A DNA stretch of 38,989 nucleotides from a virus. The notes under the pieces are model-generated. The model was not told where the DNA came from and did not search any database. It saw nothing but the letters and a program-made list of their open reading frames with translations. Positions 7,423 through 38,989 of this stretch are shown piece by piece. A program made the position numbers and the translations under genes. Location of the stretch: the IMG/VR virus record IMGVR_UViG_3300048930_000687; one strand, written 5' to 3'. Numbering within the stretch: position 1 is the stretch's first letter; every line of letters starts with the position of its first letter.

Positions 7423-7791
7423 GTGATGCTAACTGTTGCTAACCTCGACTGGATGGCGAAAGCGTCGACATCCAGCACCCTTCGTCCCAAGTGGGGGCGC
7501 AAGCTCGCGGCTCGACGCACCGAGCTCGGTCTCAGCCTTGGGGCGATTGAGGAAATGACCAACGGCGTTGTCTATACCCAGTTGCTGTATCGCCTCGAGA
7601 ACGGTCGCATGAACCCCAGGAACCTCAAGGCTCATCAGTTGGGGGCTCTGCTGACCGCGCTAGAGTGGACGCACGAGGACTGGGATGCGTTGCTTGGGCA
7701 GCCTTCTGGAACTACCGCTGGCGTCGGTACTCCAGTCGAGACCGCGAAGGGTCACGGCAGCTCACACCTGGTTATCCCAGGGGGGTGGTGA
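7423..7791 (+). CDS. XRE-family HTH domain protein (N-terminal part of a cI/LexA-like repressor)
   Basis: HTH-XRE-like region GRKLAARRTELGLSLGAIEEMTNG...; ORF ends TGA at 7789-7791 immediately after a G6 run; track start is GTG, ATG at 7426. Confidence 0.7.
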   Translation: MMLTVANLDWMAKASTSSTLRPKWGRKLAARRTELGLSLGAIEEMTNGVVYTQLLYRLENGRMNPRNLKAHQLGALLTALEWTHEDWDALLGQPSGTTAGVGTPVETAKGHGSSHLVIPGGW

Positions 7792-8165
7792 TGGTGCCGG
7801 TCTACGGCTCAGCAAACGGCGGCAAGCCATCCGAATACGGCATCCCAGTCGACCCCGAACTAGTCAGAGGCGACAACACCCGCGCCTACCAAGTAGACGG
7901 CGACAGCATGAACACCGGCACCGAAGAAGGCATCCGAGACGGAGACTGGGTACTCGTAGACACGAGCCTCACCAAAGGCATCCCCGGCCGAGTCTTCCTC
8001 CTCGAGATCATCGGCGACGGCATGACCGTCAAACGCCTCCGCGTATTCGACGGCGAATGGCGCTTCGCCAGCGACAACCCGGAGGTCGGCGAGAGCTGGC
8101 GTGGCGACCAAGTCCGCGTCATCGGCCAGGTGTACGGCAAAGTCAACTTCAAGGCGATCCATTGA
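7791..8165 (+). CDS. S24 (LexA/cI-like) peptidase domain protein (C-terminal part of a split repressor)
   Basis: Motifs VPVYGSANGG, DGDSM (Ser nucleophile context) and TVKRL (Lys); ATG overlaps upstream stop as TGATG; frame is open for 42 codons upstream of the ATG. Confidence 0.8.
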   Translation: MVPVYGSANGGKPSEYGIPVDPELVRGDNTRAYQVDGDSMNTGTEEGIRDGDWVLVDTSLTKGIPGRVFLLEIIGDGMTVKRLRVFDGEWRFASDNPEVGESWRGDQVRVIGQVYGKVNFKAIH

Positions 8166-8222
8166 GGCAAGCAGCAACACACTGAAAAGGGTGCACGTGA
8201 ACCAAGGATGGAGGAATCCAGA

Positions 8223-9350
8223 ATGAGTAGCCGCCCTTCTGTCCAAAAAGGGGACCCTGCCAAACTAATACCGCTGAGCGACCTCGCATTTGATCCCGAG
8301 AACCCGCGGCTGCCCAAAGAACTTGATGGATCGGACGAGGCGGCGGTGCTGGACTGGATGATAAAATACGGAGCCATCAATGAGCTGATGGCCTCGATTG
8401 GTATGCAAGGTTTTTTCACTGCGGAGGCCCTGCTCGCGGTTCCGAATCCCAGCGGCGGCTACTGGGTTGTGGAAGGCAACCGACGACTGGCGGCGGCAAA
8501 GCTACTTGTAAACCCAAACCTGGCGCGATCGCGGGCGAACTCAATAAGGGACACCGTAGCTGCGGCGGATCATGCGCCAACCAGGCTTCCGGTCATTGTC
8601 TACCCGGACCGCTCGAAGATCCTCGCTTATCTGGGGTTCCGCCACATTACAGGGGTGAAGCAGTGGGATTCTCTCGCAAAGGCTCGCTACCTTGAGCAGA
8701 TGCGAGTGCAGATGACCAACGACGGTGTTCAAGAAGCTGATATGAATCGCAACTTGGCGAAACTAATCGGAAGTCGTTCCGACTACGTCGAGAGGCTTCT
8801 ATTCGGCTTGAAGGTATACGACCGGATTGTCGAGGAAGTCCTAACTGATTCAGAAGTCAAGGTCGACGAGTCCGAGATCAACTTCTCCGTCCTCACCACC
8901 GCGCTGAACTATACGAGTATCGCCGACTTCGTGGGTTTGAATCGGGAGCAGGGTGTAGAGGGTGTCTCTCGAGAACGCCTTCGCGAACTCACTCAATGGA
9001 CGTTCGAGAAGAGCAAGGACCGACCATCTAGGGTCGGTGAGTCCCGCAACCTTGCCCTCCTCGCACAGGTCGTAGCCGAGGCAGACGCTCTCCAGGTTTT
9101 CCGAGACGGGGCGCCATTGAAGGAGGCGGCCGTTTACGCGAAAGGACCCGGCAAGTTGATGCGCGAGTCCTTGAGCGCAGCACGCAACAACCTTCGCGCG
9201 GCATTTGGTGCCGTCCTGACTGTGCCTGACCTAAACGAATCTGACCGGGCCCGAGCTGAGGAAGTAAGTACTGCAAGCAATCGACTCTTGAAGTTGATTG
9301 AGAGCGTCCTATTGGACGCGGCCAACAAGCAGGATGGGGGCCATGAGTAA
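8223..9350 (+). CDS. ParB/Srx-like N-terminal domain protein with unknown C-terminal region
   Basis: Motif VVEGNRRLAAAKLL resembles the ParB GxRRxxAA box; GGAGGA before the ATG at 8223; visibly lower G+C than surrounding genes; 8-nt overlap with next gene. Confidence 0.65.
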   Translation: MSSRPSVQKGDPAKLIPLSDLAFDPENPRLPKELDGSDEAAVLDWMIKYGAINELMASIGMQGFFTAEALLAVPNPSGGYWVVEGNRRLAAAKLLVNPNLARSRANSIRDTVAAADHAPTRLPVIVYPDRSKILAYLGFRHITGVKQWDSLAKARYLEQMRVQMTNDGVQEADMNRNLAKLIGSRSDYVERLLFGLKVYDRIVEEVLTDSEVKVDESEINFSVLTTALNYTSIADFVGLNREQGVEGVSRERLRELTQWTFEKSKDRPSRVGESRNLALLAQVVAEADALQVFRDGAPLKEAAVYAKGPGKLMRESLSAARNNLRAAFGAVLTVPDLNESDRARAEEVSTASNRLLKLIESVLLDAANKQDGGHE

Positions 9351-10371
9351 CGCCAGGCAGCTGCTTACGGCTGAACGGCGACCGACTATCCGGAAGATGG
9401 ACACGCATATGCACGCAGACTTTGCTGAAGTGCTATGCCTGGTGAACCCCGACCATGACATCTCAAGCTCGGACATACTCGACCGCTTCGCAGAGCGACG
9501 TGACCTGGGCGAGGAGTTCGAGGAGGCCGACATTGATCCGGAGTTAGCATTTGGTGTTGCCGGCAACTACGAACTGCCTACTGAGCAGCCCGTGGATGGG
9601 GAGTGCGAAGAGATCGATCAAATTAGTGAGCAACTCGTGCTCCGCCAGAGGCTCCTGGGAAGCGCCTATCCTTTTCGGCTCACGGTAACCGGATCGAGCT
9701 TCCGCCTCGCTCGCAAGCAGAAGCTCCACAAAGTGCACCTACTCTACCTGTTCCTACTGATTGCTTCGGATCTCACTCGCATCAACAACCCCACCTACTC
9801 GCGACGGTTTACTAGCGCATTTGAGCGGCTTGCAGGCGAGATGATGCGACGGCTGCTACCGTCCGGAGCCCAGGTTCACCTCTTTGGCACCGCCGCACAG
9901 AAGGGTGAATTGTTCCACGGTGGTCGCCTCGGTGATCGAATGGAACTCTTGGCTAAGCACTTACGCGGTGTCTCTAAGCTGGATAGGAACCATTCTGGGT
10001 CCTCTGGCGACGCCGGCATTGACATCGTCGGCTGGGTGCCAATGGGCGATGCGGGCGACGGCCTGCTAGTTTTGATGGGCGGTGCAACGTGCTCATACAA
10101 GAACTGGGAGAACAAGGTCTATAGTACGTCTTACGGCAGATTGAAGGAAAAGGTCCAGATTCGCGTCCCTAGCGTGAATGTGACATTCATTCCGTTTTTC
10201 ATGCGTACGTCCTCCGGCGATTGGCATAGGGCCGACGAACTCGGTGAAGCTCTCCTGGTGGACAGGCTCCGTCTCATCAAGGGTTTGGCTAAGGCCGGCG
10301 ACGTAATTGAATCCATCGGCGTAAAGCGGGAGCTCCGCGACATTCTTCAAATAAGAGAGACCACCGTCTAG
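9343..10371 (+). CDS. Hypothetical protein, candidate nuclease partner of the methyltransferase
   Basis: 342 aa; acidic N-terminal region; segment GDAGIDIVGW...GGATCSYK loosely resembles Mrr/PD-(D/E)xK-type catalytic cores; sits immediately upstream of a C5-MTase gene. Confidence 0.5.
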   Translation: MSNARQLLTAERRPTIRKMDTHMHADFAEVLCLVNPDHDISSSDILDRFAERRDLGEEFEEADIDPELAFGVAGNYELPTEQPVDGECEEIDQISEQLVLRQRLLGSAYPFRLTVTGSSFRLARKQKLHKVHLLYLFLLIASDLTRINNPTYSRRFTSAFERLAGEMMRRLLPSGAQVHLFGTAAQKGELFHGGRLGDRMELLAKHLRGVSKLDRNHSGSSGDAGIDIVGWVPMGDAGDGLLVLMGGATCSYKNWENKVYSTSYGRLKEKVQIRVPSVNVTFIPFFMRTSSGDWHRADELGEALLVDRLRLIKGLAKAGDVIESIGVKRELRDILQIRETTV

Positions 10372-10386
10372 AATAGATTGGCGTCC

Positions 10387-11361
10387 ATGACTCAGGTCCT
10401 CAAATCCGCCGTTTCACTCTTCTCGGGGTGCGGCGGGTTCGACTGGGGCGTGAAGAGCGCCGGTGTCGACATCATCTGGGCGAACGACATCGACCCTCAC
10501 GCGGCCGCTGCCTACAAAGCCCTGTTCCCCGAAACCGAGTTCCATCTCGGCGACGTAAGAGACATCGCGACCTTCCCCGAAGCTGACGTTCTCATAGGTT
10601 GCTATCCATGTACGGGCTTCAGTCTCGGCTCACGGCGACGCAACCGCGATGGCGCCGACAGGGACCTCAAAGCGAACGGCGGCAACTATCTGTACGAGGA
10701 ATTCGTCAGGGCCCTATCAGTCGTGCAGCCGGCGGTCTTCTTCATCGAGAACGTCGGTGGCATGACCACTGCGTCTGACGGTTGGTTTTTCGAGAAGCAG
10801 TTGACCGAGTTCAGGCGCCAAGGATACGTCGTCAACCACAAGGTCCTAGACGCGTCAAGTTTCGGAGCAGCACAGACCCGCAAGCGACTCTTCATCGTCG
10901 GCGTCAAGCAAGAACTCGGCACAAGCTTCACTTTCCCCGAACCCACACATGGTCAGGCTGACGACCTGAAGGCACTAGCAAGCCTCCGGTCGGCGCTAAC
11001 AAATGTGAAGACTGATGTTGACACCGAGGTCTTCAACTTCAAGTTTCACGGTCATTACCTGACGAGAAACCGGAAACGCCCATGGGAAAGCCCCAGTTAC
11101 ACCATTGTCGCTAACGCACACCACGTTCCCCTCCACCCGTCCGGTGAACCAATGCGCCGCGTTGGAGTGGATCATTGGGAGCTCCAGGGCGACGTGAACC
11201 GTCGGCTCTCATGGCGCGAATGTGCCGCAATACAAGGCCTTCCCCCACAAGTAGCGCCGTCGGGAACACTGCTCGACAAGTACAGGGTCGTAGGCAACGC
11301 AGTACCTCCCGTTTTCGGGAAGACCTTGATGGAAGAGGCCACAGCACAGTTCGGCAGTTGA
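10387..11361 (+). CDS. DNA (cytosine-5)-methyltransferase
   Basis: C5-MTase motifs: FSGCGG (I), GCYPCTGFS (IV, catalytic Cys), FFIENV (VI), QTRKRLFIVG (VIII), GNAVPP (X); start could be TTG at 10378. Confidence 0.9.
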   Translation: MTQVLKSAVSLFSGCGGFDWGVKSAGVDIIWANDIDPHAAAAYKALFPETEFHLGDVRDIATFPEADVLIGCYPCTGFSLGSRRRNRDGADRDLKANGGNYLYEEFVRALSVVQPAVFFIENVGGMTTASDGWFFEKQLTEFRRQGYVVNHKVLDASSFGAAQTRKRLFIVGVKQELGTSFTFPEPTHGQADDLKALASLRSALTNVKTDVDTEVFNFKFHGHYLTRNRKRPWESPSYTIVANAHHVPLHPSGEPMRRVGVDHWELQGDVNRRLSWRECAAIQGLPPQVAPSGTLLDKYRVVGNAVPPVFGKTLMEEATAQFGS

Positions 11362-11444
11362 AACGGAGCCCTGAGGACGGCAGATTCTCCGACTCTAGAG
11401 GCTGAACCATACGGACGCCAACCATAGTTCACCGGGGAGGAATA

Positions 11445-11546
11445 ATGACCAGCAGAGTATGTATAGACGGTGAGGGCACCAATCGTTTACTTGACGGTCG
11501 GTTGACTCGCGTCACCGTCGGTTTGGTCCCGGACGATGTCCCGTAA
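11445..11546 (+). CDS. Small upstream ORF (33 aa) overlapping the integrase start
   Basis: ATG preceded by GGGGAGGAATA; my translation MTSRVCIDGEGTNRLLDGRLTRVTVGLVPDDVP; stop lies 8 nt inside int. Confidence 0.3.
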   Translation: MTSRVCIDGEGTNRLLDGRLTRVTVGLVPDDVP

Positions 11547-12831
11547 GCGCAATCGTCGCGCGCCGGGCGAGGGCGCCATCTACGAACGCCCCGACCGCGG
11601 CACCTGGGTGGCGGCCATCGTGATCGCCTTCGACGAGCACGGACGCCCAATCAGACGCACGAAGACCACGCGCACGAAGACCGAAGCCATGGCCTGGCTC
11701 ACCGCCCAGCAGGCAGCGCTCAACAGCGGCTTGAAGCTCGGGGAGAACGCGACCCTGCAGGAGGTCGTCGACGAGTGGATGGCCGCCGGCCAAGCCCTGC
11801 GCGGCTGGGGTACCAGCACCGTGACGTCATACCGAGCCACCATCGCGAAGATCCTCCCACGCCTCGGACGCATGCGGGCCCGCGACCTCGACCCAGCCCT
11901 CATCGAGCGAACCCTCCTCGACCTCACCCGCAACGGCGCCTCACCCGCCATGGTGGCTCGCGTCCGCAGCCACCTGGCCATGGCCTTGAGGTACGCACTA
12001 CGCAAGCGCCTAATCGAGCGCGACCCGATGCTTGGCGTGGACGCACCGACCACACCGGCTCCACAGATCCAACGATGGAGCGAGGCGGAGGCCGGCAGGA
12101 TCGTCCGCGAATGCCTCGACCGGGACGACCAGACCGCCAGGTACGTGCTGGTGGCACTCGGCACCGGTCTCCGAACGGAGGAACTGCTGGGTCTCGCCTG
12201 GTCGAGCGTTGACCTCGAGGAGCGCATCCTGCTTGTCGAGCGCGTGGCGATCGAGGTCGCCGGCAGGAAGGAGCTCCGGGCGGGCGGCAAGACCGAAGCC
12301 GCCAACCGCCCGGTGCCGATCGACGAGCTGACAGCCGCAGCCCTGGCGCGGCAGGCCGAGCATGTGGAGCACTTGCGCGGCGCCCGGGCGCACCTGGATG
12401 CCAAGCGGGTCGCCGAGGGCCTCCAGTCGCTCGGCTGGGCTGATCTCGACCTGGTGTTCCCGTCGTCGGTCGGAACGGTCGTGAGCCGCAAGACGCTCCG
12501 GGCCGGGTTCGGCGATCTGCAGGAGCGCACGGGCGTGACGCGCATCAAGCTCTACGCCACGCGATCCACGCACGGGAGTCTGTTGGCCGATGCGGGAGTC
12601 AACCTGCACGCGCTGGCCGAGCGCATGGGGCACGCCGACCGGCGTTACCTGGCCAAGAAGTACCTGCGGGGAAGCACGTCGGCGCACCGCGCAGTCGCCG
12701 AGCAGATAGGGCAGATCCTTGGTAGCACGCTGGTAGCAGGAGCCTCTCCGGAGAGCGTCTCGGAAGGTCACGAACCGGCAGGAGAGGGAGCGCGGAACAC
12801 GCGGGAAGTGCGACGGGAGGCCAGTAATTGA
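11536..12831 (+). CDS. int: Tyrosine-type site-specific integrase
   Basis: 431 aa; N-terminal arm-binding-like region, core with GLRTEELLGLAW, C-terminal HGSLL / MGHADRRYLAKKY consistent with the R-H-R-Y catalytic arrangement; followed by a tRNA 3' fragment. Confidence 0.9.
   Translation: MSRKRNRRAPGEGAIYERPDRGTWVAAIVIAFDEHGRPIRRTKTTRTKTEAMAWLTAQQAALNSGLKLGENATLQEVVDEWMAAGQALRGWGTSTVTSYRATIAKILPRLGRMRARDLDPALIERTLLDLTRNGASPAMVARVRSHLAMALRYALRKRLIERDPMLGVDAPTTPAPQIQRWSEAEAGRIVRECLDRDDQTARYVLVALGTGLRTEELLGLAWSSVDLEERILLVERVAIEVAGRKELRAGGKTEAANRPVPIDELTAAALARQAEHVEHLRGARAHLDAKRVAEGLQSLGWADLDLVFPSSVGTVVSRKTLRAGFGDLQERTGVTRIKLYATRSTHGSLLADAGVNLHALAERMGHADRRYLAKKYLRGSTSAHRAVAEQIGQILGSTLVAGASPESVSEGHEPAGEGARNTREVRREASN
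12721..12744. repeat. Direct repeat copy A (GGTAGCACGCTGGTAGCAGGA), candidate integrase arm-type site
   Basis: 19 of 21 positions identical to copy at 12969-12992; contains GGTAGCA twice 11 bp apart. Confidence 0.4.
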
Positions 12832-12869: not shown

Positions 12870-12913
<44 letters not shown>

Positions 12914-13100: not shown

Positions 13101-13301
13101 ATGTCCAACAAGACCCAGGTCATCACTTCGGGCATGCTTCGCTCGCTAGACACCTTCGGCGCAGGACGCCAAGATCAGAGAATCATTGAAGAGTCCAAGA
13201 CCCTCAGCTCCACCACCCCGCGGGAGCAGATGCGAGACCGCTGGGTAAGAGTCGGCCAGTATTTGGGGAGGAACGCACGGCTCCTTCACGAGCGTGGCTA
13301 A
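13101..13301 (+). CDS. Hypothetical small protein (66 aa)
   Basis: ATG preceded by GGAGGGAG; visibly lower G+C than phage core genes; track ORF starts at GTG 13068. Confidence 0.4.
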   Translation: MSNKTQVITSGMLRSLDTFGAGRQDQRIIEESKTLSSTTPREQMRDRWVRVGQYLGRNARLLHERG

Positions 13302-13827
13302 GAAGCGCAAGGGCGAACGCCAACCGCGACTTAAACTTCAGCCAACTGGCGAGTTAACAACGCCACCTCCCACCGCAGTTGAGGAAGTCCTTGAGGAGCT
13401 TGAGCCTCGGCAGAAGCAGGTTATCCAAGAGTGGATTTCCTATGCCTTCAGCGGCCCGTTGCCACCACCCAACATCGTCTCTGGCTACGACCAGATCATC
13501 ACCAACGGCGCGGATCGCATCATGGAGATGGCAGAACGTGACCAAGAGCATGTTCATGGCCTTGAGAATGCACATTCGGCTCGACTAGACAGGTTCCTCG
13601 ACAGCGACATTCGGCTCGCTCGTAACGCGCAGTTACTGGGCGGCGTTTTGTTCACCCTGATGATCGTTGCGGCTCTATTATTCGCGTTCCTAGACAAGCT
13701 GCCTGTGGCGCTAGGCACCGTTCTTTCGGCGGGACTGGTCCAAGTTGGGACCTGGTTGCTCAATCGGTATTCAAACCGCCAGCCGACTAAACCCGAACAG
13801 GACAAGGCAGAGCCCAAGGGCAAGTAG
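13294..13827 (+). CDS. DUF2335-like membrane protein
   Basis: Motif LPPPNIVSGYDQIITNGADRIMEMAE resembles DUF2335 (from memory); two C-terminal hydrophobic helices; GTG start overlaps previous ORF. Confidence 0.55.
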   Translation: MAKKRKGERQPRLKLQPTGELTTPPPTAVEEVLEELEPRQKQVIQEWISYAFSGPLPPPNIVSGYDQIITNGADRIMEMAERDQEHVHGLENAHSARLDRFLDSDIRLARNAQLLGGVLFTLMIVAALLFAFLDKLPVALGTVLSAGLVQVGTWLLNRYSNRQPTKPEQDKAEPKGK

Positions 13828-38862: not shown

Positions 38863-38989
38863 CGGTCACGCGTGAAAGCGTCACCGCTTGCCTCCGTACC
38901 AGGTCGATTGCGTGTTGCCGAGCGCGGCACGTCGCAGTTGCTCGTCGAGGTATTCGAGCGCGCCGAGGTCGCAGCGTGCTGGCGCCATG
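38863..38989. repeat. Terminal direct repeat, identical to 1-127
   Basis: Read directly from sequence. Confidence 0.9.

Follow-up and report, generated by a model that had tools for sequence, protein, structure and literature searches.

A three-gene cassette joining a ParB-fold protein, a nuclease-fold protein and a C5 cytosine methyltransferase in the lysogeny region of a temperate phage

PD-lambda-5 is a validated anti-phage system with broad activity in E. coli (Vassallo et al. 2022), which is represented in PADLOC by the PD-Lambda-5_A and PD-Lambda-5_B models and was read by its authors as a compacted "RM+Abi" system. It pairs a ParB-type protein (PD-lambda-5_A, a ParB/HEPN fusion of about 430–590 aa) with a DNA methyltransferase (PD-lambda-5_B, a D12-class N6-adenine enzyme, PF02086 in phage AS1) and resides on temperate phages, beside the integrase or in P2 hotspots. 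MspJI and AspBHI belong to the Mrr-like, modification-dependent enzymes of Type IV; in about half of the members of the MspJI family the neighbours are a 5mC methyltransferase and vsr, a documented case of a modification-dependent enzyme in a neighbourhood that looks like restriction-modification (RM). LlaJI, BsuMI, CglI/NgoAVII and McrBC are NTP-dependent multi-subunit systems that share the logic of a C5 methyltransferase, a nuclease subunit and a separate NTPase/DNA-binding subunit, the NTPase being an AAA+/McrB GTPase or a helicase. We know of no restriction enzyme in which a ParB-type protein is the partner of a PD-(D/E)xK nuclease. GmrSD, BrxU and SspE combine a ParB-superfamily nucleotide-binding domain with a DNA nuclease and discriminate DNA by its modification; each is a single fused DUF262-DUF1524 chain, has DGQQR and HNH motifs and senses modified DNA or acts on it, the ParB-related DUF262 being the sensor/NTPase half (PMC12839542). 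In phage 5mYOX-ParB pairs, a ParB-like protein is required in vivo for an adjacent DNA-acting enzyme, a TET/JBP-type dioxygenase, and a CTP-dependent complex on DNA has been proposed as the mechanism (10.1101/2025.08.14.668559). DndB, which regulates a modification operon, has a ParB fold (PMC10853773).

We describe a cassette that shares features with such systems. The window, that is, the whole stretch of 38,989 nucleotides analysed (IMG/VR record IMGVR_UViG_3300048930_000687), is a circular phage genome and not an integrated prophage, which corrects the "prophage-borne" of a first-pass annotation made from the sequence. The same annotation described three tightly spaced plus-strand genes between the repressor and the integrase, and in this the ORF list and coordinates agree: the genes occupy positions 8223–9350, 9343–10371 and 10387–11361, within longest ORFs of 380 aa (8208–9350), 357 aa (9298–10371) and 327 aa (10378–11361), all on the plus strand. 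Directly upstream lies a split repressor (7426–8165, plus strand), called by JGI as a helix-turn-helix (HTH) ORF at 7426–7791 and an S24 peptidase ORF at 7791–8165 (PF00717, E = 2e-14). Downstream is a tyrosine integrase (11536–12831, plus strand; PF00589, E = 2e-15), followed at about 12876–12912 on the same strand by a fragment of a tRNA 3' end (GGGGTTCGAATCCCC...CCA, read in the sequence) that is the probable attP core. The cassette shares its strand with both the repressor and the integrase, and a terminator scan found no terminator-like site on the plus strand ahead of gene 1. The phage is temperate, and the cassette sits in its lysogeny region. The cassette is also richer in A/T than the phage core, as had been remarked: its G+C content is 57.1% compared to 64.9% in the remaining genome, which is below every other window of the same length (minimum 62.4%; z = -4.7), and GC3 is 0.64–0.68 in its genes against 0.79–0.84 in the flanking repressor and integrase genes. 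This foreign composition fits the horizontal acquisition favoured below.

Gene 1 (8223–9350, plus strand) encodes a ParB/Srx-fold protein of 375 aa if translation begins at ATG 8223, the likely true start judging by a Shine-Dalgarno-like GGAGGA at 8211–8216, plus strand, 6 nt ahead of it. Alignments and profiles place the N-terminal ParB/Srx nucleotide-binding domain at residues ~19–150 (8262–8657, plus strand). Invariant in a 40-sequence alignment are DPxNPR (D29, N32, P33, R34) and E89-G-N-R-R93 (nt 8472–8486), the latter beginning the GxRRxxAA box E89-G-N-R-R93-L-A-A that the first-pass annotation had called ParB/Srx-like; the profile alignment sets "VVEGNRRLAAlKLL" against ParB "LIAGERRLRASKL" and the box against ParB GERRLRA. 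CTP hydrolysis in ParB uses a Glu of the GxRR box; gene 1 has Asn at that position, and its NTP turnover is consequently uncertain. The remainder of the protein had been described as an unknown C-terminal region of 240 aa, but profile and structure matches identify within it an HTH of the ParB/KorB type at residues ~155–211 (8670–8840, plus strand; "LAKLIGSRSDYVERLL"), where I187, G188 and V194 are invariant and S189 and Y193 nearly so. An all-helical region follows at residues ~226–377 (8883–9338, plus strand) and closes with a long helix at 344–377, according to the AF2 secondary structure; this region is family-specific, with no family match in domain or PADLOC searches. The HEPN Rx4-6H motif is absent from gene 1, no Rx4-6H being readable after R280.

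Gene 2 (9343–10371, plus strand) overlaps the end of gene 1 by 8 nt (ATGAGTAA, 9343–9350, plus strand, read in the sequence), an arrangement that suggests translational coupling. Across the 76 two-gene loci described below, the longest-ORF start of gene 2 falls within -86 to +20 nt of the gene 1 stop in 74. ATG 9343, likely the true start, gives exactly the 342 aa reported in the first-pass annotation and retains an N-terminal "LxAERRP" kept in homologues, which the JGI call (324 aa) would cut off. The protein had also been called an orphan; its family in fact holds about 3,000 clusters at 50% identity, all of them annotated as hypothetical in databases. Its N-terminus matches winged-helix and forkhead folds in structure searches, and the catalytic domain has the PD-(D/E)xK (Mrr/MspJI-like) nuclease fold, MspJI being the best structural and profile match; the annotation's "nuclease-like" thus holds at the level of fold, from which DNA cleavage would be expected. 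PADLOC models do not match gene 2. The active-site region (10006–10116, plus strand), delimited by profile alignment to MspJI and conservation over 99 sequences, runs from G-D-A-G-I-D242 (nt 10006–10023) to K273 (nt 10114–10116) and aligns with MspJI "SGDGGVD334...LGQ355AK357C"; D242 is conserved in 100% of the sequences, Q262 in 97% and K273 in 97%. The canonical Lys of (D/E/Q)xK is missing throughout the family, which has Ala at the position of MspJI K357. In the clade of the window's gene 2, Q262 is replaced by Gly, so that the sequence between D242 and K273 reads "GGATC" where 97% of relatives read "GQCAC". Given this substitution of a conserved Gln, the window's copy might have altered or reduced activity; the variant is found in three sequences with a mutual identity of only 47–52%, which argues that it is maintained.

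Gene 3 (10387–11361, plus strand) encodes a C5 cytosine DNA methyltransferase of 324 aa (PF00145, E = 9e-56; TIGR00675, E = 4e-50) that starts 6–15 nt past the gene 2 stop, at ATG 10387 (JGI call) or TTG 10378. Motifs I (FSGCGG), IV (PCTGFS), VI (ENV), VIII (QTRKR) and X (GNAVPP) are readable in the translation, which leaves the earlier identification unambiguous; among solved structures M.HaeIII comes closest, with a match along the full length (E = 3e-37). Its complete catalytic motifs and tight linkage are those of the cognate-type methyltransferase of classical Type II systems, and from its motifs the protein is predicted to be active. Among defence-system models gene 3 has its best match in DruM2 of Druantia type II (E = 1e-89), yet nothing DruE-like is encoded by the three genes and the neighbours are the repressor and integrase rather than DruE, DruF or DruG; we rejected this assignment.

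Comparison with PD-lambda-5 shows a relationship without membership. The N-terminal ParB/Srx domains, in some models also the HTH regions, are homologous (E down to 7e-25), but the PD-Lambda-5_A models (428–592 positions) cover only gene 1 residues ~19–165 (at most 248), whereas a true member, gp27 of phage AS1, matches most of the model length. Gene 1 lacks HEPN, its place as effector being taken by a separate PD-(D/E)xK protein, and gene 3 is a C5 (PF00145) and not a D12 adenine methyltransferase. Membership in the GmrSD/SspE group was likewise rejected: gene 1 has EGNRR and no HNH, and among the relatives listed only 1 of 120 matches PF03235. Unlike those single-chain fusions, the cassette has two proteins, a ParB-type HTH, a PD-(D/E)xK effector and a cognate methyltransferase. 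It also differs from the 5mYOX pairs, whose ParBs have no DNA-binding domain, in that gene 1 retains one and is partnered by a nuclease fold. Where the LlaJI-like systems use AAA+/McrB or helicase subunits, the corresponding NTPase here would have the ParB-CTPase fold.

For a survey of bacterial loci, the gene 1 profile was searched against one genome per species, which yielded 80 loci in many phyla, and neighbouring genes were identified with purpose-built HMMs. A gene 2 relative lies immediately 3' of gene 1 in 76/79 bacterial loci, and two of the three exceptions stop at a contig edge. The C5 methyltransferase is adjacent in 53/69 informative loci and lies further off within the locus in 7 more, which places it within about 8 kb in 60/69; the remaining 9 (13%) have genes 1 and 2 with no C5 methyltransferase within several kb, and in these the D242...Q262...K273 core of gene 2 is intact, the preceding GD being lost in three. 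A search with the gene 2 profile yielded 17 viral contigs; gene 2 adjoins a C5 methyltransferase in all 17 and the whole triad is present in 16, the other contig being cut off just before gene 2; in the 16 viral loci that hold gene 1, gene 2 always follows it directly. The most common flanking gene is Vsr (12 of 135 nearest ORFs). Vsr is a repair nuclease that accompanies active C5 methyltransferases. Other cassette loci adjoin NaeI, HaeIII and SacI restriction systems, AIPR and AAA_21.

In coliphage Wphi and its relatives the triad occupies P2 defence hotspot 1. More generally, in P2-like phages of E. coli and Yersinia it is flanked by gene A, for the replication endonuclease, on one side and by gene Q, for the portal, on the other, an interval identified by Vassallo et al. 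(PMC9519451) as the hotspot of tin and old. The gene combination is already known from the P2 hotspot loci listed by Rousset et al. 2022, which include "DNA_methylase + hypothetical + ParBc". The triad is a conserved unit, in keeping with the module that the first-pass annotation suggested; the statement that it is "not a textbook arrangement" needs revision, since with thousands of relatives and an existing listing it is not rare.

These neighbourhoods bear on the possibility that gene 1 is a phage partition or maintenance ParB and genes 2 and 3 are unrelated cargo, which we consider highly improbable. In fold, GxRR box and HTH gene 1 does agree with ParABS ParB and KorB, and it matches TIGR00180, though weakly (E = 4e-4, far below the cut-off). 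However, its C-terminal domain differs from theirs, its constant partner is gene 2 rather than ParA, and no ParA-type deviant Walker A protein (KGGxGK[ST]) is encoded by any ORF of the circular genome; the presence of an integrase and attP, moreover, indicates that the phage is not a plasmid prophage. The regions upstream of gene 1 in 55 loci contain no shared parS-like motif, having no 8-mer or 10-mer in common apart from an A-rich background, and the only candidate ahead of the window's gene 1, a short palindrome (GGTGCACGTG, 8190–8203), has no counterpart in locus L002. The neighbourhood data effectively refute a partition role; the partition ParB that the first-pass annotation named as grounds against its own proposal is not borne out.

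The upstream regions are equally relevant if genes 2 and 3 are an ordinary Type II pair and gene 1 only its transcriptional controller, a large KorB/DndB-like analogue of a C protein that delays nuclease expression upon entry to a new host. In C-R operons the controller precedes the nuclease, an order that the overlapping gene 1-gene 2 arrangement mimics, and DndB provides a ParB-fold precedent. We nevertheless regard this explanation as unlikely: the shared upstream word that a nearly invariant recognition helix should lead one to expect is missing in 55 loci, the two closest loci have no common palindrome, gene 1, with its 375 aa and its large and conserved C-terminal domain, goes far beyond the needs of a controller, and the gene 1-gene 2 pair persists where the methyltransferase is absent.

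Gene 1 also diverges as fast as gene 2, unlike a generic regulator. Pairwise identities of the two are strongly correlated (Pearson 0.82), while those of the methyltransferase correlate with genes 1 and 2 at only 0.22 and 0.23; sequence comparison thus indicates that genes 1 and 2 are inherited together and that the methyltransferase is exchangeable. Wphi and phage 12474III share 98% identity in the methyltransferase, 34% in gene 1 and 27% in gene 2. The co-variation can be explained by linkage alone and is no proof of a complex. In neither gene 1 nor gene 2 does any region clearly follow the methyltransferase type; the best block (Spearman 0.41) may reflect lineage, because it coincides with methyltransferase clusters of mostly Bacteroidota loci.

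Divergent gene 1-gene 2 pairs beside a nearly identical methyltransferase would also suit a Type IV-like system, in which genes 1 and 2 cut DNA bearing particular cytosine modifications, in the manner of MspJI, AspBHI, GmrSD and SspE-type enzymes, and the methyltransferase either makes marks unseen by the nuclease or is a relic of an ancestral RM system. The surroundings of the MspJI family, the 13% of pairs that have no nearby methyltransferase and the DUF262 half of GmrSD, BrxU and SspE are consistent with this. Yet linkage to the C5 methyltransferase is far tighter than that of MspJI, structure searches of gene 1 and gene 2 turned up none of the known reader folds for modified bases, SRA and EVE included, and gene 2 differs from MspJI in having a winged-helix and helical domain in place of the SRA-like N-terminal domain, in lacking the Lys of QxK and in its obligatory ParB-like partner. 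The hosts include E. coli, where Dcm is usually present, and with Dcm and the cassette's own methyltransferase both present a general 5mC-dependent nuclease would be self-destructive there. A Type IV-like activity therefore appears improbable, to about the same degree as a controller role for gene 1.

Less probable still is an abortive-infection guard of the kind proposed for PD-lambda-5. Gene 1 would then respond to signs of phage interference, such as anti-restriction proteins, foreign ends of DNA or a loss of methylation or SAM, by unleashing gene 2 on the cell's own DNA, and the host would be killed. In its favour are the homology of the ParB domain to that of PD-lambda-5_A, where a HEPN RNase is the fused effector, and the entry "DUF262 + DNA_methylase + HEPN", also in the P2 hotspot lists (Rousset et al. 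2022); this entry suggests a design that recurs, in which a ParB-like sensor and a methyltransferase are combined with one effector or another. On the other hand, the effector here has a restriction-type DNA nuclease fold with a winged helix of its own, and the sequence indicates no trigger.

With modest confidence, we favour the explanation that the cassette is a horizontally acquired, methylation-based RM-type defence module on a temperate phage, in which gene 2 needs its ParB-fold partner; probably it is also an addiction module. Gene 3 would methylate C5 of cytosines within a short target site and so modify the carrier cell's DNA. Gene 2 would be the effector, its winged-helix domain binding DNA and its Mrr/MspJI-like domain acting as the nuclease, and gene 1 its obligate partner, translationally coupled and always inherited with it. 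Gene 1 would bind DNA, with NTP binding (CTP, ATP or GTP) most likely serving as a switch that loads, positions or licenses the nuclease on DNA without the cassette's methylation, possibly within a complex of the two proteins. Incoming phage or plasmid DNA would be cut and the lysogen's own DNA protected. PD-lambda-5, with its matching ParB domain, is a validated relative that speaks for defence, and the 5mYOX-ParB pairs are a precedent for a ParB-like protein as the activator that a DNA enzyme requires. What the data establish is how the genes are linked, how they fold and that they occupy a hotspot, and the defence activity is our inference; the literature searched held no functional study of any cassette member. 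That methylation protects is the presumed polarity, against which it counts that MspJI, the closest match of gene 2, cuts methylated DNA and that about half of its family lies beside a 5mC methyltransferase and vsr; the nine loci with genes 1 and 2 and no methyltransferase are likewise awkward for a classical restriction enzyme.

More tentatively, and with clearly less confidence, the triad may be a distinct and widespread RM class in which a ParB-CTPase-fold protein is a nucleotide-gated DNA clamp or switch for an Mrr-like nuclease. Gene 1 would bind DNA by its ParB-type HTH, close upon NTP binding and, once closed, recruit or activate the separate nuclease on DNA lacking the cassette's cytosine methylation, communicating in one dimension much as in the spreading of ParB or the sliding of Type III enzymes. 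If so, the fast divergence of genes 1 and 2 between two coliphages that share almost the same methyltransferase would reflect an arms race with phage anti-restriction proteins; it could also mean that the gene 1-gene 2 pair senses whether DNA is methylated yet has no matching sequence specificity of its own.

The window is a JGI metagenome contig whose bases 38863-38989 are identical to bases 1-127, and this 127-base terminal repeat indicates a closed circle of ~38,862 bp (~38.86 kb), which is the whole genome of a temperate phage. Genes for the large terminase, the major head protein and the tape measure protein are present, as are a primase gene and a helicase gene. The repressor (7426-8165, plus strand) is split into an HTH ORF (7426-7791) and an abutting S24 LexA-like peptidase ORF (7791-8165), where a single CI/LexA-type protein would be expected. 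Directly behind the tyrosine integrase gene (11536-12831, plus strand), ~12876-12912 reads as a tRNA gene 3' end (T-arm GGGGTTCGAATCCCC, acceptor strand, CCA), and a hairpin comes next. ARAGORN found no complete tRNA at this place; the phage probably integrates in a tRNA gene, with this 3' end as its attP core. Taken together, the repressor, the integrase, the putative attP and the circularity of the contig point to a temperate siphovirus-type phage in circular form; the description of the cassette as prophage-borne in the first-pass annotation consequently does not apply, the genome being circular and not integrated. Just past attP, in a stretch of lower G+C content (~59%), lies a gene for a DUF2335/phrog_3996 membrane protein of the "moron" category (13294-13827).

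The three genes of the cassette lie between the repressor and the integrase, on the strand common to all of these genes. Gene 1 likely starts at 8223 (after GGAGGA), gene 2 at 9343, where its start overlaps the gene 1 stop (ATGAGTAA), and gene 3 at 10378 or 10387. The block is indeed A/T-richer, as the first-pass annotation had described it: its G+C content is 57.1% compared to 64.9% elsewhere, below that of every other window of equal length (z = -4.7), and GC3 is 0.64-0.68 compared to 0.79-0.84 in the neighbouring genes. This composition suggests that the block was acquired horizontally. A sigma-70-like promoter match (TTCAAA-17-TAGAAT, 10346-10374) is found just 5' of the gene 3 start and could conceivably give gene 3 independent expression; in the promoter and terminator scan of the cassette region, match counts did not exceed those in shuffled controls. 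A search for an operator or C-box 5' of gene 1 in 55 loci yielded nothing common.

Gene 3 matches PF00145 at 9e-56 with all catalytic motifs readable, and on these grounds it is unambiguously assigned as a C5 DNA methyltransferase, as had been proposed. Its match to the DruM model of Druantia II reflects methyltransferase similarity only, and Druantia II was rejected. The nearest solved relative is M.HaeIII (GGCC), with a full-length match. GGCC is under-represented in the window, where it is the most depleted 4-base palindrome (303 observed, 375 expected, z = -3.7); the most depleted hexamers are GAGCTC, AGGCCT and CAGCTG.

Gene 1 has no Pfam match at E < 0.1, no match in a single-sequence PDB search, and a match to TIGR00180 (NCBIfam) at E = 4e-4 that is well under the family cut-off. 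Its predicted structure is confident (pLDDT 92): the modelled N-terminal domain matches KorB, pNOB8 ParB-N, PadC and sulfiredoxin, the middle part matches the DNA-binding domains of KorB, ParB and SopB, and the C-terminal 150 residues are helical and family-specific. Among 40 relatives, DPxNPR and EGNRR are invariant and the HTH segment IGSRxDYVxRLL is nearly so. EGNRR aligns with the nucleotide-binding GERR box of ParB, with Asn in place of the Glu that is the catalytic residue of ParB. The alternative that gene 1 is a partition ParB, which had been raised at the outset, was rejected together with a partition system in general, in that the circular genome has no ParA, no common parS-like motif was found 5' of gene 1 in 55 loci, and the phage carries an integrase and the putative attP.

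The first-pass annotation regarded gene 2 as an orphan. No source gives gene 2 a family annotation: there is no Pfam match at E < 0.1 and no usable one in NCBIfam, a single-sequence PDB search gave only chance matches to tetranectin, and a word-based homologue search found only 22 relatives, which is why the gene looked like an orphan until profile searches and neighbourhood HMMs corrected that impression. An exhaustive profile search detects 2,995 relatives among 50%-identity cluster representatives; the best 150 of these are 263-391 aa long, which leaves no fusion among them, and in a second profile search none of the best 120 matches has a name other than "hypothetical". The family profile SGDxGxD...GQCAC aligns to the catalytic SGDGGVD334...GQ355AK357 of MspJI. 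All 99 family members compared have D242, and 97% have the Gln; a Lys further downstream (K273) is likewise 97% conserved. None has Lys at the canonical catalytic position. Gly replaces the Gln in the window's gene 2 and its two closest relatives.

We scanned one genome per species of bacteria and archaea with a gene 1 profile, confirming relatives at 583 places or more (that is, at least 583), and kept 80 loci from many phyla. Our HMMs place a gene 2 relative immediately 3' of gene 1 at 76 of the 79 loci, and the two genes typically overlap or are separated by a few bases. In 53 loci the pair adjoins a C5 methyltransferase gene, which lies downstream on the same strand in 30, convergently in 14 and upstream in 9; in 7 the methyltransferase is within the locus but not adjacent, and in 16 it is absent, about 9 of these having several kb of flanking sequence. 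In viral contigs matched by the gene 2 profile, gene 2 adjoins a C5 methyltransferase in 17 of 17, and the whole triad is present in 16, the remaining contig ending just before gene 2. The three genes thus form a conserved unit. The first-pass annotation had considered the arrangement unusual; the finding is real and better founded than that first pass could show, but the arrangement is less singular, belonging to a large, phylogenetically broad and already catalogued family.

The commonest extra neighbour of the cassette is Vsr, a repair nuclease that accompanies active C5 methyltransferases; others are NaeI, HaeIII and SacI restriction systems, AIPR, AAA_21 and integrases. In some genomes the gene 1-gene 2 pair lacks a separate methyltransferase and comes right after a complete classical system: Vsr, a C5 methyltransferase, HNH and NaeI in L004 (3397-9050), and a C5 methyltransferase and a HaeIII endonuclease in L053 (4569-8856), where gene 2 is in two ORFs, possibly by a frameshift. 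Nine further pairs (loci L039, L055, L065, L072, L078, L081, L084, L085 and L088) have no C5 methyltransferase within several kb and retain the D242...Q262...K273 core of gene 2; the preceding GD is lost in L078 and L085. The 25 commonest of the 72 Pfam families near these nine pairs include no adenine or N4-cytosine methyltransferase family.

A blastn search of the cassette against phage genomes gave no match. At the protein level, relatives of gene 1 with 35-41% identity over nearly the full length are found in coliphage Wphi, vB_EcoM-12474II to V, Yersinia phages L-413C and HQ103, and Pseudomonas phage D14A. The annotations of Wphi, vB_EcoM-12474III and D14A (3 of 3) show a gene 2 relative and then a convergent C5 methyltransferase, the Wphi triad being orf98, orf96 and mth. 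The E. coli phages carry the triad between portal gene Q and replication gene A, which Vassallo et al. (PMC9519451) describe as the P2 hotspot of tin and old. "DNA_methylase + hypothetical + ParBc" occurs repeatedly among the P2 hotspot loci of Rousset et al. 2022 (PMC9122126), undiscussed in the text, and the same list (supplement file 6) also has "DUF262 + DNA_methylase + HEPN", which beside the ParBc entries suggests a recurrent design of a ParB-like protein, a methyltransferase and an exchangeable effector. Among 5,426 complete E. coli genomes, 36 have the 12474III form of the cassette and a further 104 match its methyltransferase only, as does E. coli W, the host of Wphi. RefSeq names the three proteins [quoted passage not shown].

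The three genes are not inherited alike. Over 56 complete triads the pairwise identities of genes 1 and 2 are correlated (Pearson 0.82), whereas methyltransferase identity is not correlated with either (0.22 and 0.23, respectively). Wphi and 12474III occupy the same hotspot with methyltransferases that are 98% identical, compared to 34% for gene 1 and 27% for gene 2, suggesting that the restriction pair has diverged rapidly or been swapped while the methyltransferase stayed constant. Both comparisons lead us to regard genes 1 and 2 as the heritable unit and the methyltransferases as exchanged. When 25-residue blocks of genes 1 and 2 were correlated with methyltransferase identity in search of a specificity determinant, no segment convincingly tracked methyltransferase type; the best block, gene 1 residues 225-248 (Spearman 0.41), is unconvincing because it coincides with methyltransferase clusters of mostly Bacteroidota loci.

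The most economical reading of these sequences is a restriction-modification-type module whose restriction half would be a two-protein enzyme, with gene 2 as the nuclease and gene 1 as its ParB-fold, nucleotide-binding and DNA-binding partner. Genes 1 and 2 would presumably form a complex, and methylation would protect. ParB-CTPase folds bind CTP, ATP or GTP depending on the family; gene 1 would bind one of these, any hydrolysis being uncertain with Asn in the place of the ParB catalytic Glu. ParB-superfamily domains recur in modification-based systems, including DndB (PMC10853773), DpdB, and GmrSD, BrxU and SspE (PMC12839542), and phage ParB-like proteins were shown to act as obligatory activators of an adjacent DNA enzyme (10.1101/2025.08.14.668559). 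The polarity could also be reversed, genes 1 and 2 being a modification-dependent nuclease like MspJI. The MspJI paper is a caution here, as it describes a locus that looked like restriction-modification, with a 5mC methyltransferase and vsr, and encoded a modification-dependent enzyme; half of that family keeps such neighbours, and ~13% of our gene 1-gene 2 pairs have no nearby methyltransferase. We nevertheless consider this reversal unlikely, since methyltransferase linkage is much tighter in the cassette than in the MspJI family and no modified-base reader fold was seen in gene 1 or gene 2. A further argument against the reversal is that the cassette has E. coli among its hosts, where Dcm is the rule.

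PD-lambda-5 is the nearest known system, a validated broad anti-phage system ("ParB/HEPN, methyltransferase") that was cloned in an mrr-deleted host and is read by its authors as a compacted RM+Abi system (Vassallo et al. 2022). The PADLOC model PD-Lambda-5_A matches gene 1 in its N-terminal part only. Marinobacter phage AS1 has, next to the integrase, a true member whose A protein is full-length and whose methyltransferase is of the D12 adenine class. The ParB-like module is common to both systems, but the cassette has a different, separately encoded effector and a C5 instead of a D12-class adenine methyltransferase; membership is thus ruled out, and the cassette is a relative of PD-lambda-5. 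The only other PADLOC model to match gene 1 is that of the candidate system PDC-M38A. The idea that PDC-M38A is a fusion of genes 1 and 2 was rejected, as gene 2 matched none of the PADLOC models, PDC-M38A included. A full-text literature search found no functional study of the triad. We rate the cassette as a putative defence module that relies on methylation and includes a ParB-like component. It is a relative of PD-lambda-5 and was catalogued before, with a fair chance of being a mechanistically distinct class of restriction enzyme.

The ParB-CTPase fold is known for chromosome segregation. If the restriction-modification reading is true, this fold would serve a common restriction system as its controlling subunit, restriction-modification biology would gain a new kind of nucleotide switch, and a recurrent, unnamed cargo of phage defence hotspots would be explained. 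PD-lambda-5 would be linked to the broader design of ParB-like protein, methyltransferase and exchangeable effector. The system could supply a new methylation-sensitive nuclease for epigenetic tools, and coliphage Wphi and its relatives offer a tractable model for the triad. For the phage itself, the cassette is probably a lysogeny-expressed module that would shield the lysogen from other phages and stabilise the prophage.
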